From IMG/VR virus record IMGVR_UViG_3300047289_000086: a DNA stretch of 64,000 nucleotides; one strand, written 5' to 3'. The position numbers and the translations under genes are program-made. Numbering within the stretch: position 1 is the stretch's first letter; the number at the start of each line of letters is the position of its first letter. This DNA comes from a virus. Positions 3,084 through 15,427 of this stretch are shown in pieces. Below the pieces are notes generated by a model, which was given only the letters and a program-made list of their open reading frames with translations, did not search any database and had not been told where the DNA came from.

Positions 3084-3086
3084 ACT

Positions 3087-3478: not shown

Positions 3479-3482
3479 CCCC

Positions 3483-3529: not shown

Positions 3530-3539
3530 GTGTTATAAT
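3511..3539 (+). promoter_or_regulatory. sigma70-type promoter overlapping the terminator
   Basis: TTGAGT-N17-TATAAT. Confidence 0.55.
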
Positions 3540-3560
3540 TGTTTATTAAAAAGGATAATT

Positions 3561-3752: not shown

Positions 3753-3753
3753 C

Positions 3754-3969: not shown

Positions 3970-4198
3970 ATTAGCAGAAGACAACAGAGTAGAAATTCTA
4001 TTAGATTTAAGTGATCAAGAATTGCTTGTGCTTTTTAAAATGGCACATGAAAAAGACATGACGTTCAATGATTTTGTTGAACACGTACTAAGAGAATATT
4101 TGGAGCAAATAGAATATGATAACATACTCAACGAACTGGATGGGTCCAGTAAGCATGGGATGGTACAGAACACGTGGCCTTACCCAGACGCAGACTAA
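3962..4198 (+). CDS. hypothetical protein
   Basis: ATG at 3962 overlaps the previous stop. The C-terminal 83 nt overlap the next ORF, so the end is uncertain. Confidence 0.4.
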   Translation: MIELAEDNRVEILLDLSDQELLVLFKMAHEKDMTFNDFVEHVLREYLEQIEYDNILNELDGSSKHGMVQNTWPYPDAD

Positions 4199-4478
4199 AA
4201 CTGCTACTGAGAACTCAATGTTTACCACTGAAGGTGAACCTTATACATCAGAATCAATTACCACACATTACTCATGTGGCAGGATTGATGTACACAACGT
4301 TCCTGGTGAGCCTTATGGTGACGAGATTAATGTACCACCAATGCTCTCAACAGACTGGGCATTGTTTGGAAACTGGCTAGATACTGTTAAAACTCTAAGC
4401 GTCTGGACTTTAGCAGACTTAGTAACAGCATACGAACAACACAATCCGCCCATAACGTGGGATACTTATGACGGATAA
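4116..4478 (+). CDS. hypothetical phage protein
   Basis: 120 aa ORF with ordinary, non-repetitive amino-acid composition. N-terminus MITYSTNWMGPVSMGW. Confidence 0.5.
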   Translation: MITYSTNWMGPVSMGWYRTRGLTQTQTKTATENSMFTTEGEPYTSESITTHYSCGRIDVHNVPGEPYGDEINVPPMLSTDWALFGNWLDTVKTLSVWTLADLVTAYEQHNPPITWDTYDG

Positions 4479-4701
4479 TTGGGCTGAAGAGGCTAGACTC
4501 AAAGTACTAGCTTTAGCTCTTAAAGACATAAAAGCGGGCAAAGACTTAAACACGGTTTTAGAATCAATGTCAAAAGCATTGACTAAAAAGCTAATGCACC
4601 CGCTTTTAGTAAAACTAAAGAGTCCTCAACCAGAGTTTGATGTTGAAACGCATAGAACAAACTATAACGCTGCACTAAACAAACCCGCACTAAAGAAATA
4701 A
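4468..4701 (+). CDS. hypothetical protein
   Basis: 77 aa ORF overlapping the previous stop. Confidence 0.5.
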   Translation: MTDNWAEEARLKVLALALKDIKAGKDLNTVLESMSKALTKKLMHPLLVKLKSPQPEFDVETHRTNYNAALNKPALKK

Positions 4702-4702
4702 T

Positions 4703-4909
4703 ATGACTGAACAAATATTTACATTTAACCAAACAGAAATTCGAGAAATACACGAGTTTGCTCTAAAGTACCCTGACTCTATGTGTGTAGAAGTTACTAC
4801 CACAACTGGCTCAGGCATTGGACAACTTGTTGTAGCCAGCGTAGCCACTTATCTTAATGAAGATTGGGTTACTATTTCCAAAACTATTACAAACGAGAAA
4901 TCATGGTAA
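4703..4909 (+). CDS. hypothetical protein
   Basis: 68 aa ORF, 1 nt after the previous stop. Confidence 0.5.
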   Translation: MTEQIFTFNQTEIREIHEFALKYPDSMCVEVTTTTGSGIGQLVVASVATYLNEDWVTISKTITNEKSW

Positions 4910-5064
4910 AAATTATGCCTTGGATAACAGGTATTGCCTGTGCACTCTACATATACTCATGGACACAGGGTATCCAGTATGAGGCTTGGACTCCACTAAT
5001 CTGGTGTCTAGGATGCTTTGCTAACGACATACACAACTACTTACAGCACAGATATGAACATTGA
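4903..5064 (+). CDS. small membrane protein
   Basis: Internal ATG at 4903 overlaps the previous stop. Hydrophobic segment PWITGIACALYIY. Confidence 0.45.
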   Translation: MVKIMPWITGIACALYIYSWTQGIQYEAWTPLIWCLGCFANDIHNYLQHRYEH

Positions 5065-5284
5065 ACTGTTACTAAAACAATCTCAGAAAACCGCAGGTGA
5101 AATAGATATTTTACAGTACACAAATTTAATACTGCTAGAGGCTTGTAGGCTTATTAAAGATACACCTACTACCTCAGCGTTTACTACTTTTGATCAGGCA
5201 GTAGCAGAAACACAACGTGCAGACTGCTTCCGTTCAGTGTACGACCAAATTGTAAGGAACATAGATGAACTTGCCACCAAATAA
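5054..5284 (+). CDS. hypothetical protein
   Basis: ATG 5054 overlaps the previous stop. Confidence 0.45.
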   Translation: MNIELLLKQSQKTAGEIDILQYTNLILLEACRLIKDTPTTSAFTTFDQAVAETQRADCFRSVYDQIVRNIDELATK

Positions 5285-5633
5285 ATTTCACTTACCATCA
5301 TACGCACAACTAAAGTCTCCTACTCAAGAAGTACAAGAAGCCGAGATTGAAAAGCCTAACCTGCCTCCTACCTCACTCCGTCAAGCACAAACTAACTGGT
5401 TGTTGGACAAACTGCAAGAAGAAGCGGCTGAGATAATTCAAGCGGTAAGCAAAATCCGTAGGTTTGGTGAAAACGCAAATCACCCTGACCGCACAACTAC
5501 CAACAAACAAGAACTCGTCAACGAACTTGAAGATTTTCTTGCAATTCTCGCGGCTCTTGAATATACTAAGTACTTGGATTTGGTTCCACATCAACAAAAC
5601 ATACTAAACAAAACGCATAAACTAATGCTCTGA
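5265..5633 (+). CDS. MazG-like all-alpha NTP pyrophosphohydrolase (tentative)
   Basis: LQEEAAEIIQAV...ELVNELEDFLAILAALE matches the EExxE / ExxD helix pattern of the MazG family. Its stop codon lies inside a TGACCCTAA motif. Confidence 0.5.
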   Translation: MNLPPNKFHLPSYAQLKSPTQEVQEAEIEKPNLPPTSLRQAQTNWLLDKLQEEAAEIIQAVSKIRRFGENANHPDRTTTNKQELVNELEDFLAILAALEYTKYLDLVPHQQNILNKTHKLML

Positions 5634-5689
5634 CCCTAAGCCATCACAACCATAAACATCACAAATTATGTCCTCACTTAAAATTGTAC

Positions 5690-5719
5690 TTGTTATTATG
5701 TTATCGAATGTGCTATAAT
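5690..5719 (+). promoter_or_regulatory. sigma70-type promoter with extended -10
   Basis: TTGTTA-N18-(TGc)TATAAT, about 190 nt upstream of ATG 5909. Confidence 0.5.
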
Positions 5720-5908
5720 TTAGTATAACTTAAAGAGTTAGAGACTAGGTTGATTTTAAGAATTGATCTAAATTATCGAAACCACGTAATGACGAGCCCA
5801 GCCGAGGAAATCTAGTGAGGTTTGATACAATTTAGGGTCAAGTCCATAAAATCTAAAACTAGTCTCCTTGCTTATCGACTCGAACCATATTTGAAATCAA
5901 ATTATAAA

Positions 5909-6691
5909 ATGCTTTTTAAAAAACAAGAAATACACTCCATTGATTTTACGGGAACTGAACACCTTAATTTGGAAGGTTGGGAAACTTGGTGTGAACAAAT
6001 GCAATTGTCCCACCTTTCTAGCTGGTTGCTGCCCCAATTGGTTGCGTGGTATGGATCGTGGACTTTAGTTTTAGATGACAAGAGCAATTACGATTGCTTA
6101 GCTACAGTTAAATTAAACTGCTCTGACCCTAAGTCTAGGGCATTTTATATGTTGTCACGAGTTAAACGAAGTCTACTAGTTGCACAACAAACTAAAACTC
6201 CTGATTACGCAAGCTTAACTCCACTTATTTTAATGGGGCTAAAACGTATGCAAGGTATTAACTATGAAACCTTTAGGAACTCTAGTGGCTTACAATATAT
6301 ACTAGAACCCAGACTACTAGATGCCCTTGTACTAAGTTCCGAGGATTTGGAAGTGTGTGGCGGTTTAGGGTCAAACAGACTACTAGAAATACAAAAGCAG
6401 GGATTAACTACTAAGTCGGGTAAAACAGCAGGCAGCATAAAACCTGCTAGATCTACTTGGAGCTTGTCAGGAATACAGGATACTGAGATTGCACACTTGC
6501 CCAAACTAACACAAACTATATTAACACAATGTTGGTTAGCTCATCCTGAGCTACGCACACCTTATATGATCTTAGACTTACAAGACTGGGATAGGATGCC
6601 ACAACCACTAGTTACAAACGACATTTTTAAAGCAGTACAAACACAACAACCTAAACAAGAACTGGCAGGAGTACTGCCTTGGGACCTATGA
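5909..6691 (+). CDS. hypothetical protein
   Basis: Long ORF. First ATG is at 5909; the track uses TTG 5822. No clear RBS. Contains two TGACCCTAA copies in opposite orientation. Confidence 0.55.
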   Translation: MLFKKQEIHSIDFTGTEHLNLEGWETWCEQMQLSHLSSWLLPQLVAWYGSWTLVLDDKSNYDCLATVKLNCSDPKSRAFYMLSRVKRSLLVAQQTKTPDYASLTPLILMGLKRMQGINYETFRNSSGLQYILEPRLLDALVLSSEDLEVCGGLGSNRLLEIQKQGLTTKSGKTAGSIKPARSTWSLSGIQDTEIAHLPKLTQTILTQCWLAHPELRTPYMILDLQDWDRMPQPLVTNDIFKAVQTQQPKQELAGVLPWDL

Positions 6692-7041
6692 AATATACCA
6701 AAGAAATAACAGACAAATTGATCGCAGACTACAAAGCAGGAATTGCTGTCCAGCAGATATCAGCAGATTTAAACGTACCAGAACGTTCAGTGATAGCTAA
6801 ATTAAGCTCTCTGGGCGTGTACGTCAAAAAGAGCTATGTCAACAAGCGTGGTGAGACGCCAGTAAAAAAATCGGAGCACATCGAGCGCATTGCAGAACTA
6901 CTGGACGTGGATGAAGAATTGCTAGAATCGCTGGAGAAGGTAAATAAAACGGTATTGAAGCTAATCGAGAACAAATTAGCCCAATCTGACCCTAAATTGC
7001 ACTATACGCGACAAACTGACCACTTATTTGCAGATGTTTGA
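6688..7041 (+). CDS. small HTH protein, paralog 1 of 4
   Basis: ATGA overlap with the upstream ORF. Shares DYKAG..V..IA..L....RSVIAKLS..GVY.KK.Y..K.GE.PVKK with ORFs 8435, 9389 and 13411. Confidence 0.65.
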   Translation: MKYTKEITDKLIADYKAGIAVQQISADLNVPERSVIAKLSSLGVYVKKSYVNKRGETPVKKSEHIERIAELLDVDEELLESLEKVNKTVLKLIENKLAQSDPKLHYTRQTDHLFADV

Positions 7042-7073
7042 CCCTAAACTGCGTTAATTTGCCCTAAGAACAC

Positions 7074-7110
7074 AAAAGCCTACTTAATTTGCGTTAAGTA
7101 GGCTTTTTTA
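7074..7110. terminator. bidirectional intrinsic terminator
   Basis: AAAAGCCTACTTAA / TTAAGTAGGCTTTT 14 bp stem, T6 on the + strand, A-run on the other side. Confidence 0.75.
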
Positions 7111-7192
7111 CGTCTATTCTAATCAGGTCTAAGCGGGCGTCTAATCGGGTAAGCTTGTTGCGGTTTAGGGTCAGACGCTGAAGAAAATGCAC

Positions 7193-7222
7193 TTGACAAA
7201 CAAGGTTTACCACTTGTATAAT
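7193..7222 (+). promoter_or_regulatory. cassette A promoter
   Basis: TTGACA-N18-TATAAT followed by GGCGCA. Near-identical to the promoter at 9027-9056. Confidence 0.65.
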
Positions 7223-7228
7223 GGCGCA

Positions 7229-7317
7229 GGACCTCGAAGATTTTGCACTTGCGTTTTGGCGCAGTAAATTGCGGGCAAAACAAAAGCCCCTACATCTTGC
7301 GGACGTAGGGGCTTTTG
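7229..7317 (+). ncRNA. candidate ~90 nt sRNA (cassette A)
   Basis: Runs from the promoter at 7193-7222 to the terminator at 7283-7317. No ORF. Homologous to the 9063-9130 segment (TTTTGCAC..GGCGCAG..AAATT). Confidence 0.4.
7283..7317. terminator. bidirectional intrinsic terminator
   Basis: AAAAGCCCCTAC / GTAGGGGCTTTT stem. Tail TTTTG on the + strand and TTTTGTTTTG on the - strand. Confidence 0.75.
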
Positions 7318-8197
7318 AAAGCTTGACCAGTGCACTGGCGGTTATCTTTTTTAACTCTAGCAGGATTTTTAAGGGAATCACCACAACCTGACCCTAAACC
7401 GTAGCCTGTCGCTACATACGACCTCTGGGGATGAATCCATCGCGAAGTTGCCTAGGTGAGCTTTGCACGTTTCGGCTCTGTCAACCGCTACAAGAACTGC
7501 GAGCAGTGTTGTTGGGTATGCTGAGTATCCGTGACTAACTAGTTTAGATTTATGTGGTTCCGCACAACTGTTTTTTCAATTATTTTAACGACCCGCCACA
7601 GTTTAGGGTCAGCGCACCATTATTTAAGCACCCGTAGCTAGGTCTTGTGCATATTAAGAAAGTATGGCTGCCACCGTACTTAATCGCCAGAGAGATTCCA
7701 TACTCTCATTACAGTCACTAAAGTCTGCTCTTGGTTAGAAGATAGCTGTATTTATTTAAGGAGTTCTTTCTCCTAGAGGTTCCTACCTTGTTGTTACCTC
7801 AAAACCAGTTTCCAGTTTTTAACTAACTCATAGAGGAGTCGGCATGGGATATAGGCGGAACATGCTGCCTAGTACTACTACTTTCCTAACACCAGCAAGT
7901 GGTACACGCTAGGGGTTTCGTCCTGACCCTAAGGTACAGCAGGTTATGAGGTTTGAAGTCTCAATGACCTACTGTGAAGTCTTGGGTTTCGCTGAAATTT
8001 CATCAGCTCATCAGAGGATTATAAAAGGGCTGCAACTTAAGTCTTTCAGTCGCAATTAAAAACTTATCCAGTTACGTGTAGAGCTGGTCTTGGTTTACCC
8101 AATCTGTAGGGGGCTGTGGCTCGGACAATTATTCCCCACAATTAAGACGCATAGCAGATATATCCCGCTTCCGCTGTCACCCTTATTCATCAATTTA
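7283..8197 (-). ncRNA. candidate ~0.9 kb non-coding RNA
   Basis: No ORF of 60 aa or more in any frame over 7385-8392. The - strand promoter at 8204-8232 points into it and the terminator at 7283-7317 closes it. By hand count the core 7380-8160 is G+C-richer than the flanks. Confidence 0.4.
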
Positions 8198-8203
8198 TAA
8201 GTA

Positions 8204-8232
8204 ATTATACACTATTTAGATAACTACTTCAA
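8204..8232 (-). promoter_or_regulatory. sigma70-type promoter (P2 of the ORF-free block)
   Basis: Reverse complement reads TTGAAG-N17-TATAAT. Confidence 0.55.
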
Positions 8233-8374
8233 GTAAAAAATTAGACACTCGTTGCAATCAGACTACTCACAAAACAGACTATTGATAAGTTGAGAGGTTG
8301 AGGTGATAATCATTTGCAGACGGACACCAACTTTCATTGGTATTCATTAAGCCCTTCCCGACTGTCTAATATAT

Positions 8375-8403
8375 ATTATACTTGAAAAACAGTTGAAGAT
8401 CAA
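8375..8403 (-). promoter_or_regulatory. sigma70-type promoter (P1 of the ORF-free block)
   Basis: Reverse complement reads TTGATC-N17-TATAAT, just downstream of the stop of gene 8435..8743. Confidence 0.45.
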
Positions 8404-8434
8404 GTCAATATTTTTTGACCCTCAACTGTTGCAA

Positions 8435-8743
8435 TCAACGCAGGTTCTGGAGGATTGCTTCCAACACTTCGTGGTTGGCTTTCTCCAAAGAGTCGAAAGT
8501 CTCTGGAGCAACACCAACACGGTTGGCGATTGCGTCAACAAGGTCAGCCTTCTTGACACGAGCAACACCAGAAGTCTTAGACTTAGGTGTGTAAACTCCC
8601 TCACGAGAGAGTTTGGCAACCACTGAGCGAGTGGTCTTGCCGAACATTGTTGCCAATGTTTCGACAGTAGCGCCAGCTTTGTAGTTGGCAACGAGCTGAG
8701 CTGTTTGCTCAGGTGTATAGTTCACGGGTTTGTCAGTCATCAT
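8435..8743 (-). CDS. small HTH protein, paralog 2 of 4
   Basis: NYTPEQTAQLVANYKAGATVETLATMFGKTTRSVVAKLSREGVY. AAAGGA RBS before ATG 8743/8740. Own promoter at 8782-8810. Confidence 0.7.
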   Translation of the reverse strand: MMTDKPVNYTPEQTAQLVANYKAGATVETLATMFGKTTRSVVAKLSREGVYTPKSKTSGVARVKKADLVDAIANRVGVAPETFDSLEKANHEVLEAILQNLR

Positions 8744-8781
8744 ATGTCCTTTCAAATGGTTTCTGTGCTGTTTAAAGATTA

Positions 8782-8810
8782 ATTATACTCTTAAAAGGGA
8801 ACATCGTCAA
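8782..8810 (-). promoter_or_regulatory. sigma70-type promoter
   Basis: Reverse complement reads TTGACG-N17-TATAAT, upstream of HTH paralog 2. Confidence 0.6.
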
Positions 8811-8925
8811 ATTCAAAAAATTCGTCGTGATCGTTGGTACAGACGAAAACTTCCGATAGTTCTGCACCCGCAAATTCTCTGAAATAGTCTTCCTGAATTT
8901 GTGCGTAAAATTCATGTTCTGTCAT
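8791..8925 (-). CDS. very acidic 44 aa protein (below the ORF-track cutoff)
   Basis: Hand translation MTEHEFYAQIQEDYFREFAGAELSEVFVCTNDHDEFFEFDDVPF. AAAGGG RBS. Own promoter at 8955-8983. Confidence 0.4.
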   Translation of the reverse strand: MTEHEFYAQIQEDYFREFAGAELSEVFVCTNDHDEFFEFDDVPF

Positions 8926-8954
8926 CTCAGAGCCCTTTCTATCTAATATGTATT

Positions 8955-8983
8955 ATTATACAAAATTTGAAAAAATTCAACAA
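8955..8983 (-). promoter_or_regulatory. sigma70-type promoter
   Basis: Reverse complement reads TTGTTG-N17-TATAAT, upstream of the acidic 44 aa ORF. Confidence 0.5.
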
Positions 8984-9026
8984 GTGCAAAGTTTTTGACG
9001 TGAGCTAACCGCCGCTGAAAATCTAC

Positions 9027-9056
9027 TTGACACATCAAGGTTTACCACTGTATAAT
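9027..9056 (+). promoter_or_regulatory. cassette B promoter
   Basis: TTGACA-N18-TATAAT followed by TGGCGCA. Divergent from the - strand promoter at 8955-8983. Confidence 0.65.
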
Positions 9057-9062
9057 TGGCGC

Positions 9063-9222
9063 ACACGCACCAACGGAAAAATTCCCCAAGTTTTTGCACT
9101 GGCGCAGAAAATTTCTGCGCCCAAATAGTACAAAAGTAGTAGTCGCTTTAAGCGACCGTAATCAGGTCTAATCGGGTATTTAAACGGGTAGGGTCGCTTT
9201 AAGCGACCGTTGCGTTTTTGCA
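9063..9222 (+). ncRNA. candidate sRNA (cassette B), 3' end uncertain
   Basis: Hairpins GGCGCAGAAAATTTCTGCGCC and two GTCGCTTTAAGCGAC copies. The second copy is followed by GTTGCGTTTTTG. Confidence 0.35.
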
Positions 9223-9267
9223 ACATAAATTTTGGCGCCGAAGTGAGTGCTCACTTCGCTTGGAGAT

Positions 9268-9305
9268 AATAAAAAACCGATTATCTGATTATGTCAGATA
9301 ATCGG
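9268..9305 (-). terminator. intrinsic terminator of HTH paralog 3
   Basis: CCGATTATCTGA / TCAGATAATCGG stem, followed by a T-run on the - strand. Confidence 0.65.
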
Positions 9306-9388
9306 GGAAAATAGATTACTGGGATTTTAACCCAGATTCCCGATAATAAAAATCGGATATTAAATATTATATGATAATCTATTATTCA

Positions 9389-9709
9389 TTATATAGGCTT
9401 AGAATTAGCTAATGCCTCGAAAATCACTTTTAAGGCATTTTTATTAGCCTTAGTTAATGATTCAATATCATTTTCGGGTAATCGCAAAATCGCCCCAATA
9501 GCATCTGCATGAATATCTTTTTTAATCGCAGATTCTCCGTTTTTGGTTTTATATTCTTTTTTAATATAAACCTTTTCACGAGATAATTTAGCGACAATAC
9601 TCCGAACAGTTTTACCAAGATTATCAGCGATAATCTCAACTGATAATCCTGCCTGATAATCGGCAATAATCTGAGCAGTTTGCTCAGGGGTATAATTAAT
9701 GTTTTTCAT
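9389..9709 (-). CDS. small HTH protein, paralog 3 of 4
   Basis: NYTPEQTAQIIADYQAGLSVEIIADNLGKTVRSIVAKLSREKVY. Followed by the terminator at 9268-9305. Confidence 0.7.
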   Translation of the reverse strand: MKNINYTPEQTAQIIADYQAGLSVEIIADNLGKTVRSIVAKLSREKVYIKKEYKTKNGESAIKKDIHADAIGAILRLPENDIESLTKANKNALKVIFEALANSKPI

Positions 9710-9721
9710 TTATTTTCTCCT

Positions 9722-9934
9722 TTAAAATGAATTATACAAACCAAGAATATTAGCTAAAAAGAAAGTACCATTAAGGGTAATTAATGATTTATCTTTTCGA
9801 TAATATCCAACCACTAACCAAGATAATGATCCTATAATAAAGAAACAATATCCCAAAAAGAATAATTGACTGGCTACAATAAAAGCACCGATAATGCTAG
9901 ATAATGTGCCAACCCAAGAAATTTTATTAATCAT
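9722..9934 (-). CDS. 3-TM small membrane protein
   Basis: 70 aa with three hydrophobic segments. Overlaps the stop of the upstream gene. Confidence 0.5.
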   Translation of the reverse strand: MINKISWVGTLSSIIGAFIVASQLFFLGYCFFIIGSLSWLVVGYYRKDKSLITLNGTFFLANILGLYNSF

Positions 9935-10308
9935 TATTTAATCCACATATTATGATGTTTATCGGGAGATAATCCGTAGTTAACCATTATCTCTTGCCAT
10001 TTAATACCATGACCACATTTTGCTTCTGATAATCCAAAAAGATTATAATCGGCTTGGTGGATTATCTCATGCGGTAATATGATTTTAGTCATATTATTTG
10101 CAAATTCTGGAGAATATAAAAAGAATTTATAACCCATTTGAATTATATTATCTTCTTGGTGGCATCTGCCCGCAGTCCGATATATTCTGCCATTAACTTC
10201 AATAATCGGTGGATTATAGCGAGATAATCGGGGATATAATTCGCAAAGAGTATCCCAGATAATCAGAGTCTGATTATTTAAAATATTAGTGAGCTTTTTT
10301 CTGTCCAT
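9934..10308 (-). CDS. SprT-like zinc metalloprotease domain protein
   Basis: HEIIH zincin motif plus RTAGRC. True start MDRKK at 10308. The upstream part of track ORF 9934..10449 covers the promoters. Confidence 0.6.
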   Translation of the reverse strand: MDRKKLTNILNNQTLIIWDTLCELYPRLSRYNPPIIEVNGRIYRTAGRCHQEDNIIQMGYKFFLYSPEFANNMTKIILPHEIIHQADYNLFGLSEAKCGHGIKWQEIMVNYGLSPDKHHNMWIK

Positions 10309-10315
10309 GTCGCAA

Positions 10316-10344
10316 ATTATACAGAGTTGTAAAAAATCCCACAA
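10316..10344 (-). promoter_or_regulatory. sigma70-type promoter giving a leaderless mRNA
   Basis: Reverse complement reads TTGTGG-N17-TATAAT, then 7 nt, then ATG 10308. Confidence 0.5.
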
Positions 10345-10360
10345 GTAGGGAAAACCCCTA

Positions 10361-10390
10361 TTGACGGGGGGCAATTTTATGTGATAAAAT
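10361..10390 (+). promoter_or_regulatory. cassette C promoter
   Basis: TTGACG-N18-TAAAAT followed by TGGCGCC. Preceded by the TAGGGAAAACCCCTA palindrome. Confidence 0.55.
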
Positions 10391-10396
10391 TGGCGC

Positions 10397-10442
10397 CTGT
10401 GGTTTTTTCGCAACAGTCGCTTTAAGCGACTGTTGTTTTTTT
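10397..10442 (+). ncRNA. candidate ~45 nt sRNA (cassette C)
   Basis: Runs from the promoter to the CAACAGTCGC TTTAA GCGACTGTTG hairpin plus T7. Confidence 0.35.
10411..10442 (+). terminator. intrinsic terminator
   Basis: 10 bp perfect stem CAACAGTCGC/GCGACTGTTG plus TTTTTTT. Confidence 0.7.
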
Positions 10443-10449
10443 GCCACAT

Positions 10450-10483
10450 ACTTTGGTTTTCAATTTGACTTGAAAACCAAAGT
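10450..10483. terminator. 14 bp perfect hairpin abutting the stop of the PQ-loop gene
   Basis: ACTTTGGTTTTCAA tttgac TTGAAAACCAAAGT. T-rich tail on the + side only. Confidence 0.4.
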
Positions 10484-10485
10484 AT

Positions 10486-10734
10486 TCATTTTCGTTTTAT
10501 TTTATAATAAATAATAATCGACAAAAATAATACATTAGCCGAGTAATTAAATAATAATGGTAAATCCATTTTAGGGAATACATATATTATTGTGAATATC
10601 TCGCCAATAAACCACATTGAAATAAATCCCCAAGTTAATCCCTCAGAGGATTTTGTTTTATATGATTCTATTGCCTGTGGTAATCCACAAAATGCCAAAA
10701 GAATAGAACCAATCCAACCTATATTATCTAACAT
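10486..10734 (-). CDS. PQ-loop / SemiSWEET-like 3-TM protein
   Basis: 82 aa. CGLPQAIESYKTKSSEGLTW PQ motif and three TM helices. Confidence 0.65.
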   Translation of the reverse strand: MLDNIGWIGSILLAFCGLPQAIESYKTKSSEGLTWGFISMWFIGEIFTIIYVFPKMDLPLLFNYSANVLFLSIIIYYKIKRK

Positions 10735-10735
10735 A

Positions 10736-11431
10736 TTATGCCTTAAAATTATCTCTTACTTGAAACTTATTCCAATCATAAGGAATAATATTATCTTGCC
10801 AATTACGTTTTTTGATTATGTGCGTGAGAATAGGTAATTCAAAATCTCTAGCATCTTCTAATGCAGTATGTGGCTCAATAATAAAATTATTATTAATAAA
10901 ACCACAAACCATTTCTGCATTAGTTTTAAAAGTCATATTACCATGCTTAGTAACATTATTAAAACCATGATTATCTAAACAGAATTGTTTATATTTTTTA
11001 GTTTTGCAGATATTACCAACCGAGGCTTGCCACAAGCAGAATTTATTATTAAATCCCGACAAATCAATACCAGTATTAGCGCATTTATTAATATCAAAAG
11101 CGAGATTATATGCAGTAAGTGAGGGATTATATTTGCCGATTGCCTGATTAATCCATTTATTAATTGCATTAACTGATGCAATCATTCTAATGCCATTTTC
11201 TAACATGGCAATATAGCCCATTTTGCGTTTAGTTAATCCCTCATAACCCCAAATATCATTTGCGTTTTTATCATGGAATAATTCCATTGTATTATAATGC
11301 CCATTAACTAAAACAGCGCATTGATTATAGATAATACCCTCACGATCACAGATAATCATGGCAAAATCTGCCACAGTATCGCCCATAGTAGTTTCTGTGT
11401 CCAGAATACAAAAGTATTGCTTTTTAGCCAT
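10736..11431 (-). CDS. DEDD-family 3'-5' exonuclease
   Basis: ExoI ILDTETT, ExoII YNLAFDI and ExoIII HTALEDA motifs in the correct order. Confidence 0.8.
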   Translation of the reverse strand: MAKKQYFCILDTETTMGDTVADFAMIICDREGIIYNQCAVLVNGHYNTMELFHDKNANDIWGYEGLTKRKMGYIAMLENGIRMIASVNAINKWINQAIGKYNPSLTAYNLAFDINKCANTGIDLSGFNNKFCLWQASVGNICKTKKYKQFCLDNHGFNNVTKHGNMTFKTNAEMVCGFINNNFIIEPHTALEDARDFELPILTHIIKKRNWQDNIIPYDWNKFQVRDNFKA

Positions 11432-11528
11432 TGTGTGCTTTCAGTTAATAGACCTGCATCTTACCATAAATTTTAAATAATAGGTGTGGTATTTTAATCA
11501 CACACAAAAAATATGTTATTAAAAAAAC

Positions 11529-11558
11529 TTGACACGCCCCAATTTTATGTGATAAAAT
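11529..11558 (+). promoter_or_regulatory. cassette D promoter
   Basis: TTGACA-N18-TAAAAT followed by TGGCGCAAACTGTGG. Confidence 0.55.
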
Positions 11559-11575
11559 TGGCGCAAACTGTGGTT

Positions 11576-11603
11576 TAAAAACAACAGTCGCTTTAAGCGA
11601 CTG
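11576..11603 (-). terminator. intrinsic terminator of gene 11653..11862
   Basis: CAGTCGC TTTAA GCGACTG hairpin followed by TTGTTTTTA on the - strand. Confidence 0.5.
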
Positions 11604-11610
11604 GTTAAAA

Positions 11611-11636
11611 TTGAAAACCTGAGTATTCAATTTTTT
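11611..11636 (+). terminator. intrinsic terminator (+)
   Basis: GAAAACCTGAGTATTC hairpin followed by AATTTTTT. Confidence 0.5.
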
Positions 11637-11652
11637 CTGCAAACCTGAGTAT

Positions 11653-11862
11653 TCAAAAATATGGTTGTGCCGATTCGCTTTTGTCCATGATATCCGCCCA
11701 ACCATGCCAGCCCATTTGCCATGCTTCTGATTGCGCCTTGTCTAGTGGTTCACCTAGAGCATGAGCATCAAAACCTAATTCATAGTCCCGATTATTAAAA
11801 TAATTGTAAGGGTAGCGAGTACCCCCATCAAATCTATAATGAAATTTTGGATCATTAATCAT
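11653..11862 (-). CDS. hypothetical protein
   Basis: 69 aa ORF, last gene of a - strand operon. Confidence 0.5.
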   Translation of the reverse strand: MINDPKFHYRFDGGTRYPYNYFNNRDYELGFDAHALGEPLDKAQSEAWQMGWHGWADIMDKSESAQPYF

Positions 11863-11863
11863 T

Positions 11864-12016
11864 TTATTTGTCCATAATGAATCTTTTATATTCTTGCATA
11901 TTATTACGATAATCCCAAGTACCCAACATTATTAATGGCAGGATAATAGTTACTAAAAGTTTATCGGGTCTAGAATATATAAAATGCCAGATTATCTGTG
12001 ATAATGTTTTAATCAT
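11864..12016 (-). CDS. hypothetical 50 aa membrane protein (below cutoff)
   Basis: Hand translation MIKTLSQIIWHFIYSRPDKLLVTIILPLIMLGTW... The stop lies 1 nt before the next ATG. The start shares TAATG with the upstream ORF. Confidence 0.35.
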   Translation of the reverse strand: MIKTLSQIIWHFIYSRPDKLLVTIILPLIMLGTWDYRNNMQEYKRFIMDK

Positions 12017-12168
12017 TAATGTATTCTCTTAGTTAATATGTCTAGAATCTGTCTTAATGGCATTTGCATTATTTCCGATATATCATAAAGATTTAAGCCT
12101 TCGGCTAAAAAATCTTTAATTAATGTCTCGGCATAATCAACATTAATGCCCTTGTTTACTTGGTACAT
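12016..12168 (-). CDS. hypothetical 50 aa protein (below cutoff)
   Basis: Hand translation MYQVNKGINVDYAETLIKDFLAEGLNLYDISEIMQMPLRQILDILTKRIH, HTH-like. Overlaps the end of the HAD gene. Confidence 0.35.
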   Translation of the reverse strand: MYQVNKGINVDYAETLIKDFLAEGLNLYDISEIMQMPLRQILDILTKRIH

Positions 12169-12619
12169 ATACACCCCTTATATTAAATCTGTCACAAACC
12201 GCTTTTAAATAAGTTACATTATCTTCATAAAACGTAAATTCAGCATCTTTAAATGTAATTAAATTAAAGAATTTAGCTAAACCATTAATTTTTAATGTAG
12301 CACCTGATATACTAGAACCTTCAGTTCTTGAAATAATATAATCAGGTTCACCCAATACCGAGTCAATAAATGTATAATCAGGGGTATTAAGAACACGGGC
12401 AGTAGCAATAATGACATAACACGATTCATCTTTTAAATCCTTTTTATATTGCTCTGCTAATGGTAAGAGAGAATCATTCAAGGCTAAATCTTGATTTTCT
12501 CTCCAATAATTTAAATCTATTCTCTCGCCATTTTCATCTACGATTGTGCGATACCTATGCAAACTGCAAACAATAGTTCCATCCATATCATAAATTGAAA
12601 CCTTTTTAATTTTAGCCAT
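12143..12619 (-). CDS. HAD-superfamily phosphatase
   Basis: Start MAKIKK after AAAGGA. DxDxT motif YDMDGT. Confidence 0.65.
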   Translation of the reverse strand: MAKIKKVSIYDMDGTIVCSLHRYRTIVDENGERIDLNYWRENQDLALNDSLLPLAEQYKKDLKDESCYVIIATARVLNTPDYTFIDSVLGEPDYIISRTEGSSISGATLKINGLAKFFNLITFKDAEFTFYEDNVTYLKAVCDRFNIRGVYVPSKQGH

Positions 12620-12711
12620 TTTGTAATCCTTTTCTGTTATTGTCCCCATTATACACAAAAACCGCCAAAAAAACCATGTGTGCTAAAATACAACATAGGG
12701 GTTTACACCTA

Positions 12712-12741
12712 TTGACAGGGGCTCCAAAATTATGGTATAAT
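12712..12741 (+). promoter_or_regulatory. cassette E promoter
   Basis: TTGACA-N18-TATAAT followed by TTTGGCGCAAACTGTTG. The palindrome ATAGGGGTTTACACCTAT abuts the -35. Confidence 0.65.
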
Positions 12742-12760
12742 TTTGGCGCAAACTGTTGCT

Positions 12761-12787
12761 AAAAAGCAACAGTCGCTTGAAGCGACT
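12761..12787 (-). terminator. intrinsic terminator of gene 12871..13221
   Basis: AGTCGCT tga AGCGACT hairpin followed by GTTGCTTTTT on the - strand. Confidence 0.5.
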
Positions 12788-12829
12788 ACATCTAGCGAAG
12801 TGAGTGCTTACTTCGCTGCGGCGCAGACC

Positions 12830-12854
12830 TGAATACCTGAGTATTCAATTTTTT
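12830..12854 (+). terminator. intrinsic terminator (+)
   Basis: TGAATAC ctga GTATTCA followed by ATTTTTT. Confidence 0.6.
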
Positions 12855-12870
12855 CTGCAAACCTTGGTAT

Positions 12871-13221
12871 TCAAAAATAAACAATGTCAACCTTGTAAGT
12901 ATCATTAAAATATTTTCTCCATTGCGTGAAACCTGTTTTTGTATCGTGACCTAAATCTTGGTTGTTTTCCATTTGCCATGCATGAACATACTCATGTGCA
13001 AGTGTGCAAAATAATTGCCTATCCGATTTTATTTCACTAGTGGAAAGCCTGATTTTGTGGTTTATCTTTTTTTCTGAAAATTTTGTTCCCTCATACATTC
13101 CCATGCAGGGATCACCATCAAAACGAATAACCTTGTTTTTTGCAAAATTAATCCTGTGTTTTAAGTTAAATTCATCTTGCAGAATTAATTGAAACAAGCG
13201 TATTTTATCTGATTTGATCAT
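12871..13221 (-). CDS. SprT-like/zincin domain protein (second copy)
   Basis: HEYVH HExxH motif within LAHEYVHAWQ. Confidence 0.55.
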   Translation of the reverse strand: MIKSDKIRLFQLILQDEFNLKHRINFAKNKVIRFDGDPCMGMYEGTKFSEKKINHKIRLSTSEIKSDRQLFCTLAHEYVHAWQMENNQDLGHDTKTGFTQWRKYFNDTYKVDIVYF

Positions 13222-13381
13222 TTTGTGAACCAGTTTAAAAGCACAATTTTAATTGCAACAAACACAATAAAAGCGAATAAGTATAAAATAAATTCAAGCA
13301 TGATTTTGTAATAGACTAATGGTTTAAAAACAGACTAATGGTTTTTTGGTTTTCAAAATGAAATTATAACACAATTTCATT

Positions 13382-13410
13382 TTGAAAAACAAGGGGCAAA
13401 GCCCCATTGT
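13382..13410 (-). terminator. intrinsic terminator of HTH paralog 4
   Basis: ACAATGGGGC ttt GCCCCTTGT on the - strand, followed by TTTTTC. Confidence 0.6.
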
Positions 13411-13737
13411 TTACAAGGTCTTTTCAGCCTTGATAAAATCAGCAATTTTCATCAAAGCAATTTTATTTGCTTTAGTGAGTGATTCTGTATCAGCTTCAGT
13501 CAAGCCTAGTGCATTACCGATAAAATCAGCGTGAACATCCTTTTTAATAGGTGTCTCGCCTGATTTCGTTTTGTATGCTTTAGCAACATAAACCTTTTCA
13601 CGGCTCAATTTTGCAACAACAGAACGAACAGTTTTGCCGAATGATTCAGCAATGGTTTCTACGCTAGTGCCAGCTTGATAGTCGGCAACCATTCGAGCAG
13701 TTTGCTCAGGCGTGTAATTCACAGTTTTGGTAGTCAT
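13411..13737 (-). CDS. small HTH protein, paralog 4 of 4
   Basis: NYTPEQTARMVADYQAGTSVETIAESFGKTVRSVVAKLSREKVY. Terminator at 13382-13410. Confidence 0.7.
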   Translation of the reverse strand: MTTKTVNYTPEQTARMVADYQAGTSVETIAESFGKTVRSVVAKLSREKVYVAKAYKTKSGETPIKKDVHADFIGNALGLTEADTESLTKANKIALMKIADFIKAEKTL

Positions 13738-13770
13738 CTTATTTTCTCCTAGTAAGAATGAATTTTAACA

Positions 13771-13899
13771 TCATGGCTTCATTAACGCAAGCCATATCCA
13801 CAATGGTGAAAAGGTTACTGCAACAAACAAAATTGCACATAAAATATCTGTAACCAATTTGTTTTCAATTTTGATCATGTTGCTGTTCCTTGTCATCAT
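13771..13899 (-). CDS. 42 aa membrane protein, apparently leaderless
   Basis: MMTRNSNMIKIENKLVTDILCAILFVAVTFSPLWIWLALMKP. The ATG lies 6 nt after a TATAAT. The longer track ORF 13771..14049 runs through the promoter cassette. Confidence 0.4.
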   Translation of the reverse strand: MMTRNSNMIKIENKLVTDILCAILFVAVTFSPLWIWLALMKP

Positions 13900-13905
13900 G
13901 TGTTT

Positions 13906-13935
13906 ATTATAGCAGAAAAAACCAAAAAAGTTCAA
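13906..13935 (-). promoter_or_regulatory. sigma70-type promoter giving a leaderless mRNA
   Basis: Reverse complement reads TTGAAC-N18-TATAAT, then 6 nt, then ATG 13899. Confidence 0.45.
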
Positions 13936-13969
13936 GTGTGTCAAAATACAACATAGGGGTTTATCCCTA

Positions 13970-13998
13970 TTGACAAGTCGTGGGCGGTGTGGTATAAT
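13970..13998 (+). promoter_or_regulatory. cassette F promoter
   Basis: TTGACA-N17-TATAAT followed by TTTGGCGCC. The palindrome ATAGGGGTTTATCCCTAT abuts the -35. Confidence 0.65.
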
Positions 13999-14004
13999 TT
14001 TGGC

Positions 14005-14205
14005 GCCCCAAAACTGAGTACCTTGGTTCTCAAAAAATCCTGCAAACAAAAGTATTCATTTTTTGTAACAAAAACTGTGGCAAAAAAACAACAGTCGCTT
14101 TAAGCGACTGGTTACGGAAACACCCGCACGGAAAGGATTCGAACTTGCACACTGGCGCACGAATTTCGTGCGCCAAAATCGCTGAAGTGAACGCTCACTT
14201 CGCCT
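14005..14205 (+). ncRNA. candidate sRNA (cassette F), 3' end undefined
   Basis: Contains the CAGTCGC/GCGACTG hairpin, the perfect 23 nt palindrome TGGCGCACGAATTTCGTGCGCCA (14153-14175) and the GAAGTGA/TCACTTC hairpin. Confidence 0.3.
14082..14110 (-). terminator. intrinsic terminator of gene 14337..14495
   Basis: CAGTCGC TTTAA GCGACTG hairpin followed by TTGTTTTTTT on the - strand. Confidence 0.5.
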
Positions 14206-14300
14206 AATGTTAGTGGGCACTTACTACCCAGGCTTTACCCCTACTCGAATCAGGGTTATTCCCCCAATGTTAGTGGGTACTCACTACCCAGGCTTTACCC
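14206..14300. repeat. two 35 bp direct repeats with a 60 bp period
   Basis: AATGTTAGTGGGCACTTACTACCCAGGCTTTACCC (14206-14240) and AATGTTAGTGGGTACTCACTACCCAGGCTTTACCC (14266-14300). Confidence 0.8.
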
Positions 14301-14307
14301 TATGTGA

Positions 14308-14339
14308 TAATATTATAGGGGTTTACCCCTATAATATTA
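14308..14339. repeat. perfect 14 bp-arm palindrome
   Basis: TAATATTATAGGGG ttta CCCCTATAATATTA. The core ATAGGGGTTTACCCCTAT recurs at the -35 of cassettes C, E and F. Confidence 0.85.
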
Positions 14340-14711: not shown

Positions 14712-15125
14712 TTAACCCTGCCAACCTTGCTTGTCCAATAATTGCAAGGTGCTATGTGATGCACCCATATTGCACATTTCAAACCATGTCACAATATCCA
14801 TGTCACCTTTGAGGGTATTCCATTTTGTGCAAGCAAGGTGAATATTATCAAGGGTATACCCTAATGCAGGGTATTTGCGATCAATGCTTGCGACCATTGG
14901 GTTTTTGCCGAATTTGCCCTTGCCATACCAATCACCGCCTCGCACCAATTCCATGCGTTGACCAGTTAACCCGCATAAACCATTTTGACCCTTGAACATG
15001 CCCTCAAGAAATGTAGGGGTAATTCTGGAATCAAAAACGATGCCGTCTTTTTTAGCCCTACATTTTGCCCAACGTACAGAATCAGAGAAAAAAAGTTCAA
15101 GAGGGGTTTTAGTGCTTTTTGCCAT
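14712..15125 (-). CDS. HNH/His-Me-finger-like nuclease (tentative)
   Basis: SIDRKYPALGYTLDNIHLACTKWNTLKG resembles the DRID..GY..N....C..N..K module of phage HNH enzymes. Confidence 0.5.
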   Translation of the reverse strand: MAKSTKTPLELFFSDSVRWAKCRAKKDGIVFDSRITPTFLEGMFKGQNGLCGLTGQRMELVRGGDWYGKGKFGKNPMVASIDRKYPALGYTLDNIHLACTKWNTLKGDMDIVTWFEMCNMGASHSTLQLLDKQGWQG

Positions 15126-15427
15126 TTTGAGTACCTTTGTTTGCAGTTTGGGAGAGTTGCCCTTTGCTTCTCTCTTGAATGTATTTTACACGTGTTTTTA
15201 GTGAGGTCAACCCCTTTATGCAAATTTTGCATAACTATTTTTCTAGGCTATCCCGACTAGCAAGAATCGTGCCGGCATGGATCTTGCTAGTGTAAGTTGA
15301 AATTGAATACTTTTGTTTCCAGACTGGGGCGGTTATCAGACACATATACCCCCTAGGGTATATCGGCCCCCCGACACGGCCTATTTAAGGAAAATTTCCA
15401 AACCCCCTAAGGTGCCAAAATCCACAC

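Follow-up and report, generated by a model that had tools for sequence, protein, structure and literature searches.

In phage lambda, the OOP RNA is made from the promoter pO antisense to the 3' end of cII; it is a conserved RNA of 77 nt that comes from a single locus, overlaps the coding sequence and acts on the cII mRNA. The same phage has a poised late promoter, pR', that occurs in one copy upstream of the genes it eventually drives, reads into the terminator tR' (6S RNA) and needs the Q protein. In bacteria, stopping of read-through at bidirectional terminators requires head-on collisions at the stem-loop (10.1101/2022.10.23.513370), and a synthetic part made of a terminator plus an antisense promoter represses in proportion to the strength of that promoter (PMC4731013). 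At the level of DNA, the major nick consensus of phage T5 is R/GCGCRGG, found on one strand only (PMC3517423).

The DNA analyzed here, a stretch of 64,000 nucleotides from an IMG/VR virus record (the window), belongs to a group of uncultured T5-like phages that carry a predicted, reversed promoter after almost every accessory gene unit. No cultured close relative of this group was found.

Promoters facing the accessory genes

Six + strand promoters had been proposed in the initial annotation, at 7193, 9027, 10361, 11529, 12712 and 13970, and all are present. Their hexamers match the consensus at 12 of 12 positions in four cases, 11 of 12 in one and 10 of 12 in one, with spacers of 17-18 nt, and the composite motif TTGAC-N17-20-TAWAAT-N0-4-GGCGC has six matches in the window, on the + strand only, compared with none in 100 shuffles. 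Promoters A (7193..7227; TTGACA-N18-TATAAT-GGCGC, with a AAGGTTTACCACT box inside the spacer) and B (9027..9062; 12/12) form a non-palindromic class, and the G/GCGCAGG of promoter A equals the full T5 nick consensus (PMC3517423). Promoters C (10361..10396; CAATTTTAT-gtg-ATAAAATTG flanking the -10 box), D (11529..11564) and E (12712..12749; CCAAAATTAT-ggt-ATAATTTTGG) are palindromic. Promoter F (13970..14006; 12/12, with an extended -10 box) represents a third class without the inverted repeat. Altogether, the six sites are predicted to belong to one conserved promoter family, very strong and of sigma-70 type.

Across 185 related viral contigs, more than 600 copies of the composite motif were counted, and in 185 of 185 loci it is confined to one strand. 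Eighty loci recovered via an island protein hold 220 copies, none of them on that gene's strand; further loci, in at least 120 contig stretches, were collected by DNA pattern. Ten divergent loci were tested, and in all of them each island-gene homologue is encoded opposite the motif. Ahead of four unit-head genes, 72-88% of distinct contexts contain the motif. An open frame of at least 55 codons converges on 145 of 156 cassettes, at a median distance of 77 nt. No clearly co-oriented downstream frame was seen in the protein-derived loci; nine instances were counted in the pattern-derived loci; homology was checked for two of the loci with such an instance, and both proved spurious. The orientation of the promoters against the genes they separate is a real and repeated property of a conserved family, and judged by sequence the antisense promoter-hairpin cassettes of the initial annotation are confirmed as a whole, while their interpretation is partly supported. 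Insertions and deletions between the window and its relatives are seen at cassette boundaries. The modular shuffling that had been described is PeSL-like but modest, with modules mostly syntenic among close relatives.

Hairpins, terminators and predicted RNAs

The 70 nt that follow GGCGC fold at -19.2 kcal/mol, compared with -11.1 for random 70-mers, and a hairpin precedes the converging stop codon in 139 of 151 unique cassettes. A T-run lies on the promoter strand in 86 of these 151 cassettes, on the gene strand in 89 and on both in 63 (controls 9%, 10% and 3%), and the first promoter-strand terminator ends at a median of ~36 nt downstream of GGCGC. The presence of a hairpin is conserved; its sequence differs between cassettes and between orthologues. 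The recurrent hairpin modules of the window were largely found where they had been placed: H2 has six copies (0.06 expected), H3 has three, and the CTGCAAAC..GTATTCA box has three exact + strand copies, H4-like variants and two inverted copies (15128 and 15304). At 9099 and 14153 H1 forms a clean hairpin; its 7246 copy is degenerate. The first inverted box copy (15128..15146, - strand) coincides with the 5' untranslated and ribosome-binding region of - strand gene 14712-15125; the second (15304-15322, - strand) is a sequence match to the box.

It had been claimed that in cassettes D, E and F the T-run of H2 lies on the - strand, ending the upstream - strand gene, and that the + strand RNA stops at H4 just before that gene's stop codon. 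This holds for D and E, in which the + strand T-run of H4 directly precedes the stop codons at 11653 and 12871. Cassette D (11565..11655, + strand; fold z -3.0) consists of H2 (11585-11603), H4 (11608-11636) and the box (11637-11655); the three final nucleotides of this box form the stop codon of - strand gene 11653-11862. Cassette E (12750..12873, + strand; z -4.0) carries hairpins at 12754-12771, 12769-12789 (H2), 12795-12816 (H3) and 12830-12847 (H4), followed by the box (12855-12873) with the stop codon of - strand gene 12871-13221; its orthologues in relatives are without H2 and/or H3. Cassette F (14007..14210, + strand; weak fold, z -1.6) has no - strand gene end within ~330 nt. It is composed of a degenerate box hairpin with a T-run (14015-14064), H2 (14092-14110, - strand T-run), a CACTGGCGCA box with the H1 palindrome (14150-14176) and H3 (14183-14204).

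Short RNAs antisense to the 3' UTR or terminator of each - strand gene, as envisaged earlier, are likewise predicted here, with cassettes A, B and F as departures. The predicted RNA of cassette A (7228..7322, + strand; ~90 nt, z -3.0) would end at a bidirectional terminator (7283-7318) and contains a decayed promoter-like box with TGGCGCA at 7257. This cassette faces a 1.1 kb noncoding stretch and no gene; in one relative, L001, its promoter and terminator are retained and the intervening body is replaced. Cassette B (9063..9260, + strand) carries a TTTTTGCACTGGCGCAG box with an H1 hairpin (9099-9119), H2 copies at 9141-9157 (T-run on the - strand) and 9192-9208 (T-run on the + strand; this second copy is missing in L001) and H3 (9239-9260); its transcribed stretch of ~170-240 nt would face a tRNA-like gene and an operon terminator. 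Cassette C (10397..10492, + strand; z -4.5) departs in another way, as the T-runs of both of its hairpins, H2 (10410-10436) and a 16-bp hairpin formed by two inverted box copies (10448-10485), lie only on the + (promoter) strand. An A-T pair of its H2 has become G-C in L001, a compensatory change, and the final TCA of the cassette is the stop codon of - strand gene 10486-10734.

Proposed convergent transcription and its alternatives

Our preferred reading, held tentatively and at somewhat less than an even chance, is that dedicated convergent promoters enforce termination by head-on polymerase collisions, yielding short 3' UTR-antisense RNAs. Each promoter lies on the strand opposite the accessory genes, immediately downstream of the unit's terminator hairpin(s), and would fire into these hairpins, giving only a short terminated RNA; its length would be ~35-40 nt in the majority of relatives, and cassettes C to F of the window would yield ~50-110 nt. 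The island genes all point one way, and it is therefore proposed that the phage equips every junction with its own small convergent partner. Antisense polymerases would meet a read-through polymerase head-on at the stem-loop, and such collisions may enforce termination, shield the next promoter and insulate each unit. The short RNA would match the 3' end of the converging mRNA in antisense and could be a by-product or a second, OOP-like layer of control.

Window cassettes except A adjoin the predicted promoter of the next unit back to back. At cassette E this gene-strand promoter occupies 12648..12690 (- strand; -10 box 12653..12648), and a second palindrome (ATAGGGGTTTACACCTAT, 12695..12712) abuts the -35 box of promoter E. 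This palindrome recurs at 10346-10360, 13953-13970 and 14315-14332; read along the gene strand, it is a hairpin followed by TGTTGTATTTT, resembling a terminator, and its arms co-vary among relatives. Equivalent - strand promoters are placed at 13935..13906, 11519..11470 and ~8984..8955, and a - strand -10 box (10321..10316) lies 7 nt before the ATG at 10308. The back-to-back layout recurs across relatives, and in their commonest cassette type its spacing is fixed, the gene-strand -10 box starting 64 nt from the complement of the antisense -35 box, along the gene strand. Against enforced collision stand cassette A, with neither a converging gene nor an adjoining gene promoter, cassettes B and F, with the next gene end 230-330 nt away, and cassette C, with its promoter-strand T-runs. 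Promoter C is also precisely missing from L001 and four other relatives, a clean loss in one lineage that kept the hairpins, and a wobble-pair test on the hairpins gave no strand preference.

The initial annotation proposed that the short hairpin RNAs are themselves effectors. Abundant and perfectly complementary to their target, they would pair with the 3' UTR or terminator of the converging mRNA; the shared modules could also pair with other island mRNAs, leading to cleavage of double-stranded RNA or altered mRNA stability, as OOP does for the cII mRNA. This is conceivable and, on balance, rather unlikely. The geometry is OOP-like (constitutive promoter, short terminated RNA, overlap with the converging 3' end), promoter-strand terminators that would stop the RNA before the coding region are enriched (57% vs 9%), and the common H2, H4 and box modules would permit pairing in trans. 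The loops of H2 and H4 (TTTAA, CTGA) presumably fit the U-turn loop pattern of antisense RNAs, which would also speak for effectors. However, the overlap is mostly with the terminator hairpin alone and rarely reaches coding sequence, wobble pairs are not biased to the promoter strand, and the cassette RNAs gave no match to known RNA families. Moreover, the RNA body differs between orthologous cassettes, being replaced or shortened, which argues against a sequence-specific small RNA and favors an effect in cis or of the act of transcription.

Neither the sequence around the -10 box nor the GCGC core is explained by polymerase collisions, which counts against them. TGGCGC had been taken as an initial transcribed box with about ten copies in one orientation. 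Ten copies of TGGCGCM do lie on the + strand (7222-14159), but there is one - strand copy, the palindromic partner at 14169, and with a distance to the -10 box that varies from 0 to 3 nt the box appears to be more than a transcribed start. In most copies the -10 box is enclosed in a perfect inverted repeat of 8-12 bp, overlooked previously, that is closed by the first G of the TGGCGC box; its arms co-vary, and arms and loop vary in both length and sequence. GCGC is conserved as sequence, being invariant though its pairing with the left arm is seen in no more than 23-65% of cases. It is also found without a promoter, which had been missed too, in CACTGGCGC arrays that resemble the injection-stop boxes and nick consensus of T5.

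The conserved core might then be a DNA-level signal to which the promoter is secondary, an explanation of low probability. GCGC beside a hairpin-forming repeat would mark strand-specific nick sites of T5 type or, alternatively, an array of protein-binding sites akin to the T5 injection-stop region or to a replication origin. In its favor, the ten window boxes all read G/GCGC on one strand, that of promoter A with the full T5 consensus, and an iteron-like 9-mer array adjoins. A palindrome follows the T5 injection-stop nick, whose sequence is GGATTTGCAC-AAAA/GCGCAGGG, and about ten GTCGGATTTGCACA boxes lie on the nicked strand; in relatives of the window, (A)AGGATTTGCACTG/GCGCAG precedes a palindrome, with a strong strand bias and often as a tandem array that lacks a -10 box. 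However, no promoter adjoins the three T5 major nick sites that were examined, the promoter motif was not found in the first 45 kb of T5, GGCGC alone has no strand bias in the loci, and a putative nick signal would leave perfect -35 and -10 hexamers at optimal spacing unexplained.

Poised promoters under conditional antitermination in the style of lambda pR'-tR' are similarly improbable. Polymerase would stop after tens of nt until a phage factor bound at the promoter-overlapping element made it terminator-resistant; long + strand transcripts antisense to the island would then shut the island off, possibly supplying the + strand block of packaging and structural genes, which begins at 15477. 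The cassettes have the pR'-tR' layout of a constitutive-looking strong promoter directly followed by a terminator, all promoters face the small-terminase and structural block, and four DNA-binding proteins, paralogues of one another and annotated as D5-like regulators, have their genes inside and next to the island. However, the small-terminase gene has a good promoter of its own at 15428, read-through would need to traverse up to 8 kb of opposing units, and the variable arms and loop of the inverted repeat are more in keeping with a hairpin than with a site read by a sequence-specific protein; a Q-like protein was not identified, and a protein model gave no significant structural match.

Finally, the cassettes are unlikely to be mainly recombination joints, as PeSL are, with repeated promoter and hairpin sequences that would supply homology for swapping, gaining or losing gene units and an antisense promoter activity that would be tolerated rather than selected. 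In favor of such joints, blocks of 35-70 nt with 64-94% identity are repeated among the window cassettes, L001 is without gene 11653-11862, its breakpoint falling exactly at a box, the window and L001 are not alike in promoter C or in the second H2 of B, distant relatives with another gene order still keep cassettes, and PeSL stem-loops also lie between or over the -35 and -10 boxes (PMC2839356). However, close relatives are largely syntenic, and homology needs no 12/12 hexamers, optimal spacing, extended -10 box or strict orientation over more than 600 copies.

Comparison with described systems

With lambda OOP, the cassettes share a constitutive promoter and a short terminated RNA, here predicted, that converges on and overlaps an mRNA 3' end; they differ in their many copies per genome, their variable RNA bodies and an overlap that is mostly with the terminator or 3' UTR. 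Lambda pR'-tR' likewise combines a strong promoter, a nearby terminator and a regulatory element overlapping the promoter, whereas here there are many copies, all antisense to their neighbors, and a Q-like factor was not found. PeSL of T4-type phages (PMC2839356, PMC4122927) also pair a strong sigma-70-like promoter and an AT-rich upstream region with a stem-loop, which may sit just downstream of the promoter or between or over its -35 and -10 boxes; they are repeated in the genome, dense among small accessory genes and coincide with indels between relatives. However, PeSL lie upstream of, and co-oriented with, the gene they drive, whereas the promoters described here face the flanking genes and would drive none; the phage is T5-like rather than T4-like, and PeSL lack the invariant GCGC as well as the perfect AT-rich inverted repeat that surrounds the -10 box.

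T5 nick and injection-stop sites (AY543070; PMC3517423) have in common with the cassettes an R/GCGC(AG) core on one strand next to palindromes, preceded by a GGATTTGCAC-type box that forms direct arrays beside a noncoding stretch of ~1 kb. No promoter adjoins the T5 nick sites examined, and the flanks of the box are not the same (GTC...A vs CAA...T). T5 also separates same-strand units by a terminator and a same-strand promoter, without antisense promoters, which speaks against a need for collisions. The preferred reading of convergent promoters has parallels in collision-driven termination and the synthetic terminator with its antisense promoter, in which, as here, a stem-loop lies between converging units, an antisense promoter directly follows the terminator, and the strength of the opposing promoter matters (10.1101/2022.10.23.513370, PMC4731013). 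In bacterial collision termination the opposing polymerases come from a real converging gene, whereas here they would come from an orphan promoter with an RNA of ~36 nt, and the synthetic part lets the antisense transcript through, whereas the natural cassettes would usually also stop it before the gene.

Genomic setting and gene content of the island

The window covers part of the roughly 100-kb genome of an uncultured T5-like phage. Its large terminase (18150-19436) has 49% identity to those of Vibrio T5-like phages, and no nucleotide match to the window was found in the phage collection. Genes for thymidylate synthase, a nucleotide pyrophosphohydrolase and a D5-like DNA-binding protein are among those on the + strand at 1-7041, and the + strand is used again from 15477, by the small terminase and then structural genes. 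Between these blocks lies an island of small - strand genes with 30-34% G+C. These are real genes, whose products include two SprT-like paralogues (9934-10308 and 12871-13221), a PQ-loop protein, a DUF6552 protein, an endonuclease VII/HNH-like protein and three D5-like paralogues (8435-8755, 9389-9709 and 13411-13737) that share 40-44% identity with the first D5-like protein, encoded on the + strand beside the island (6679-7041). The helix-turn-helix protein of the island has no match in the phage collection. For the D5-like protein, there was no sequence match among solved structures and the match to GcrA was weak and sub-threshold; its model (pLDDT 73) predicts two three-helix bundles, with no significant match in a structure search. 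Only 6-7 nt separate the ATG of a SprT-like gene from the -10 box of its gene-strand promoter (10306-10321, - strand), and this spacing is equally short for several genes heading units, the gene or genes between two junctions, in relatives. This short distance suggests that mRNAs from such promoters may be leaderless.

Two features of the island may be noncoding RNA genes. The 1.1-kb stretch at 7320-8400 contains no open frame of at least 40 codons; ten relatives match it over all or nearly all of its length, at 74-93% identity. On both strands, its consensus folds with energies well below those obtained from column shuffles. It matched no Rfam family and resembles nothing in the first 45 kb of T5. 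Good predicted - strand promoters (8403..8375 and 8232..8204) and a bidirectional terminator (7283-7318) accompany it and suggest that its - strand is transcribed into a noncoding RNA about 0.9-1.05 kb long. The second feature is a tRNA-like gene at 9311-9381 (- strand, 25% G+C), flanked by the 9389-9709 gene and a - strand terminator (9277-9305). It scores 37.7 bits against Rfam tRNA (threshold 29), was missed by ARAGORN and by default Rfam filters, and is the only regional Rfam match at curated threshold, the promoter cassettes described below giving none. The anticodon in its loop, UUUUAUU, is UUA and would decode the stop codon UAA, and the sequence of the gene recurs among cassette sequences of three related loci (L003, L009 and L018). 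Decayed tRNA genes were considered elsewhere in the island and rejected, as the T-loop-like GGATTCGAAC at 14136 is not kept in the close collinear relative L001 and ARAGORN found no tRNA.

Cassette architecture in the window and its relatives

Six + strand promoters, at 7193, 9027, 10361, 11529, 12712 and 13970, head cassettes A to F, as the initial annotation had proposed. All are present, with 10-12 of 12 consensus positions and spacers of 17-18 nt, and the pattern TTGAC-N17-20-TAWAAT-N0-4-GGCGC matches six times in the window, only on the + strand, and never in shuffled sequence. Most of the predicted promoters have an extended -10 box, and an A-rich stretch lies 5' of the -35 box. The hairpin modules H2 and H3 and the box CTGCAAAC..GTATTCA, described as shared among cassettes, do recur far above chance, and the final three bases of the box form the TGA stop codon of three - strand genes (10486-10488, 11653-11655 and 12871-12873). 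The description of H1 is corrected in that the copy at 7246 is degenerate. The hairpins assigned to the predicted transcripts were borne out for A, C, D and E (z of -3.0 to -4.5) and less strongly for B (-2.2) and F (-1.6). Antisense products of 45-110 nt had been predicted; for B and F, far more than 110 nt precede any - strand gene end. Cassette A faces a noncoding stretch and not, as had been thought, a - strand gene, and the description of C is corrected in that both of its hairpins carry + strand T-runs.

Several repeats were observed around the last cassette. Between F and a palindrome at 14315-14332, two 42-nt copies with 90% identity lie 60 nt apart (14199-14300), each holding an imperfect AGTGGGYACTYACT palindrome. 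An inverted copy of the GTATTCA box forms the 5' untranslated and ribosome-binding region of gene 14712-15125. The motif GGCACGATTCTTGC, which contains GATTC, has a single inverted copy in the window (15262-15275), in the divergent region between the endonuclease and small-terminase genes; in relatives such as L003, L009 and L011, it forms a direct pair just 5' of the -10 box in one type of gene-strand promoter.

Homologues of the cassettes were found in relatives, and the promoter motif occupies a single strand in 185 of 185 motif-carrying loci. A search with the helix-turn-helix protein yielded 80 viral loci containing 220 copies, none on the strand of that gene, and a DNA-pattern scan added at least 120 further contig stretches. 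Ten contigs richer in G+C gave a mixed strand picture by crude open-frame counts; their gene order is unlike that of the window, but their island-gene homologues all lie opposite the promoters, and the apparent co-oriented frames proved spurious once these homologues had been placed. The strict motif precedes four unit-head genes, themselves placed via protein homology and not via the motif, in 72-88% of distinct contexts, figures that are biased somewhat upward because part of the set was found through the motif itself. In close relatives, unit order is retained and the promoter is missing at roughly 10% of junctions.

The junctions have a common anatomy. On the gene strand, a gene and its stop codon are typically followed by one or more hairpins, GCGCC, the complement of the -10 box, TGTCAA, a second small hairpin TAGGNGTAAACNCCTA and then TGTTGTATTTTT, a T-rich stretch, and finally the TATAAT of the next unit's promoter, which in the commonest cassette type starts 64 nt in, counting from TGTCAA. 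The next gene promoter therefore stands back to back with the antisense one. Seen from the cassette promoter, GGCGC is nearly always followed by a hairpin, with a sequence that varies among cassettes, and a hairpin lies ahead of the converging stop codon in 139 of 151 unique cassettes. The 70 nt after GGCGC fold at -19.2 kcal/mol, compared with -11.1 for random 70-mers. A converging open frame is present in 145 of 156 cassettes, with a median distance of 77 nt between its stop codon and GGCGC.

Of 120 unique promoter strings, 75 contain a perfect inverted repeat, 8-12 bp long, across the spacer and -10 box (a class that includes C, D and E in the window, not A, B or F), and shuffling the spacer gave essentially no repeats of at least 8 bp. 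Its arms co-vary (CAATTTTAT/ATAAAATTG, CAATTATA/TATAATTG, CCAAAATTAT/ATAATTTTGG and CCATTTTAC/GTAAAATGG). The core of the pairing begins at a C and ends with the first G of GGCGC. The remaining GCGC finds a partner in the left arm in only 23-65% of cases and is therefore conserved as sequence and not as stem. The distance between GGCGC and the -10 box ranges from 0 to 3 nt and tracks the end of the repeat, which speaks against the earlier view of TGGCGC as an initial transcribed box; a stringent-type discriminator was rejected on the same grounds. A leftward second promoter using the mirrored -10 box was also discarded, no usable -35 or extended -10 box being present at the right distance.

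A possible role in termination and its alternatives

Perfect hexamers, spacing and a single orientation have been kept over hundreds of diverged copies, which is evidence that the host polymerase's binding and firing there are under selection. Among 151 unique cassettes, T-runs follow on the promoter strand in 86, on the gene strand in 89 and on both in 63 (controls 9%, 10% and 3%); measured from GGCGC, the first promoter-strand terminator ends at a median distance of about 36 nt. As promoter-strand terminators are so enriched, the promoters probably do fire, and antisense entry into the gene is presumably selected against. Since all units point one way, no island unit has a natural converging partner. 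Single-molecule work has shown that, at bidirectional terminators, read-through is not prevented unless polymerases collide head-on at the stem-loop, and that release improves with trailing polymerases (10.1101/2022.10.23.513370). Moreover, in a synthetic design combining a terminator with an antisense promoter, the upstream gene was tuned in proportion to promoter strength (PMC4731013). Taking hexamer, hairpin, terminator, orientation and this collision evidence together, it is tentatively proposed that the cassette promoters are dedicated convergent partner promoters, a reading that we regard as quite possible and as the likeliest of those considered. They would enforce termination at unit junctions, shield the promoter of the next unit and insulate the units from one another, with the short antisense RNA as a by-product or as a second, OOP-like layer. 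If so, the cassettes would be a natural counterpart of the terminator and antisense promoter device, so far only synthetic, employed systematically at nearly all junctions in an array of co-directional genes, and phages could provide orphan convergent promoters that make termination collision-proof. The cassettes offer hundreds of natural predicted strong promoter/terminator pairs for testing. The convergent-partner model leaves the -10 inverted repeat and the invariant GCGC without explanation.

An effect mediated by the RNA itself, as for lambda OOP, is rather unlikely, even though the predicted transcripts are structured and mostly converge on a gene end. Hairpin presence is kept while hairpin sequence is not, and RNA bodies are swapped or shortened between orthologues, which is evidence against a sequence-specific small RNA. 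L001 was reached through one exact H2 match and is collinear with the window at about 86-90% identity. Its cassette A retains promoter and terminator around a transcribed body swapped for other sequence, its cassette B has no second H2 copy, and at its cassette C one H2 base pair is G-C in place of A-T, a compensatory change. A conserved trans-acting small RNA was rejected, the RNA body being neither conserved nor matched in Rfam, as were small proteins encoded 3' of the promoters, for which a consistent same-strand open frame is absent. Counts of G-T and A-C pairs in the hairpins (100 vs 121) were uninformative for the functional strand.

Conditional antitermination in the manner of lambda pR'-tR' is given little weight. 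A mainly recombinational role, like that considered for PeSL elements, the promoter-stem-loop cassettes of T4-type phages, is improbable too. In its favor are gains and losses at cassette boundaries, with three clear cases between the window and L001 and order changes in distant relatives. The - strand gene 11653-11862 (69 codons) is missing from the 87%-identical L001 (at about 6207), with its breakpoint exactly at the box end and a short tcattt microhomology, and promoter C is cleanly missing from its -35 box through GGCGC, the flanking palindrome and H2 being retained. However, close relatives are mostly syntenic.

Comparison with T5, PeSL elements and OOP RNA

A slim chance is left for a DNA-level role of the GCGC and its boxes, as a nick site, an injection-stop signal or a replication origin. 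Within 7222-14159, the + strand has ten copies of TGGCGCM, in agreement with the roughly ten same-orientation boxes first annotated, and the whole window has 16 on the + strand and one on the - strand. Across loci, CACTGGCGC is strongly strand-biased while bare GGCGC is not, and regions of the cassette B type contain CACTGGCGC(A/C) boxes without a promoter, often as tandem TTTTGCACTGGCGCAG units. Boxes of the form (A)AGNTTTTGCACTGGCGCAG without a -10 box were observed at 7236-7263, 9085-9119 and 14132-14176 and form tandem arrays in relatives (L058, L074, L101 and others); by our reading, they resemble a DnaA box at 8 of 9 positions. The 9-mer TGACCCTAA, which also adjoins cassette A in relatives, has exactly ten copies in 2.3 kb (5631-7932), in both orientations and partly within coding sequence, and one in the remaining 61.7 kb, so that it looks like an iteron-type protein-binding array. 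Contig-end mapping of the island as a terminal repeat was confounded by cross-matches between paralogues.

The major nick consensus of T5 is R/GCGCRGG (PMC3517423; notes of T5 record AY543070). All ten window boxes read G/GCGC, with the full GCGCAGG only in the box of cassette A (7223-7230). On its nicked strand, the injection-stop region of T5 has about ten GTCGGATTTGCACA boxes, and after the last of them come AAA/GCGCAGGG and a palindrome; in relatives of the window, the unit AAGGATTTGCACTG/GCGCAG and then a palindrome has a 10-nt core and the cut-site core in common with it. Likewise, GGATTTGCAC and R/GCGCAG are common to the (A)AGNTTTTGCACTGGCGCAG boxes and to the nick site and injection-stop boxes of T5. 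However, no promoter lies beside the three major T5 nick sites examined, and this promoter type is absent from the first 45 kb of T5. It seems very improbable that the invariant GCGC after the -10-containing hairpin repeat is a T5-type strand-specific nicking recognition site, by which the strongest promoters of packaged genomes would be nicked at their -10/+1 boundary, on the non-template strand. Were it so, the long-unexplained T5 nicks would be coupled to transcription, for example through pre-melted promoters on relaxed, freshly injected DNA, or alternatively a structure-specific nuclease might cut the base of an extruded cruciform. The likeness of GCGC and the boxes to the nick and injection-stop region opens a new, testable way into two old puzzles of T5.

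In the way they would work, the cassettes resemble PeSL elements and OOP-type units, yet they differ from PeSL elements in orientation. As with OOP, they overlap the 3' ends of converging mRNAs, and their hairpins are common to both strands. A short RNA from its own promoter, ending at an intrinsic terminator, is a prediction from sequence here, with folding at z of -1.6 to -4.5; unlike in OOP, which is antisense to the cII 3' end, coding-sequence overlap is unusual here. With PeSL elements they share predicted sigma-70-like, near-consensus promoters with an AT-rich upstream region, stem-loop sequence in or next to the promoter and hairpins directly after it; PeSL stem-loops of T4-type phages are also found between or over the -35 and -10 boxes (PMC2839356). 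PeSL elements are upstream of and co-oriented with the gene they serve, whereas these promoters always lie opposite the island genes, and no clearly co-oriented downstream frame was left after the homology check. The cassettes carry the idea of promoter-plus-stem-loop units beyond T4-type phages into T5-like ones, but in the opposite orientation.
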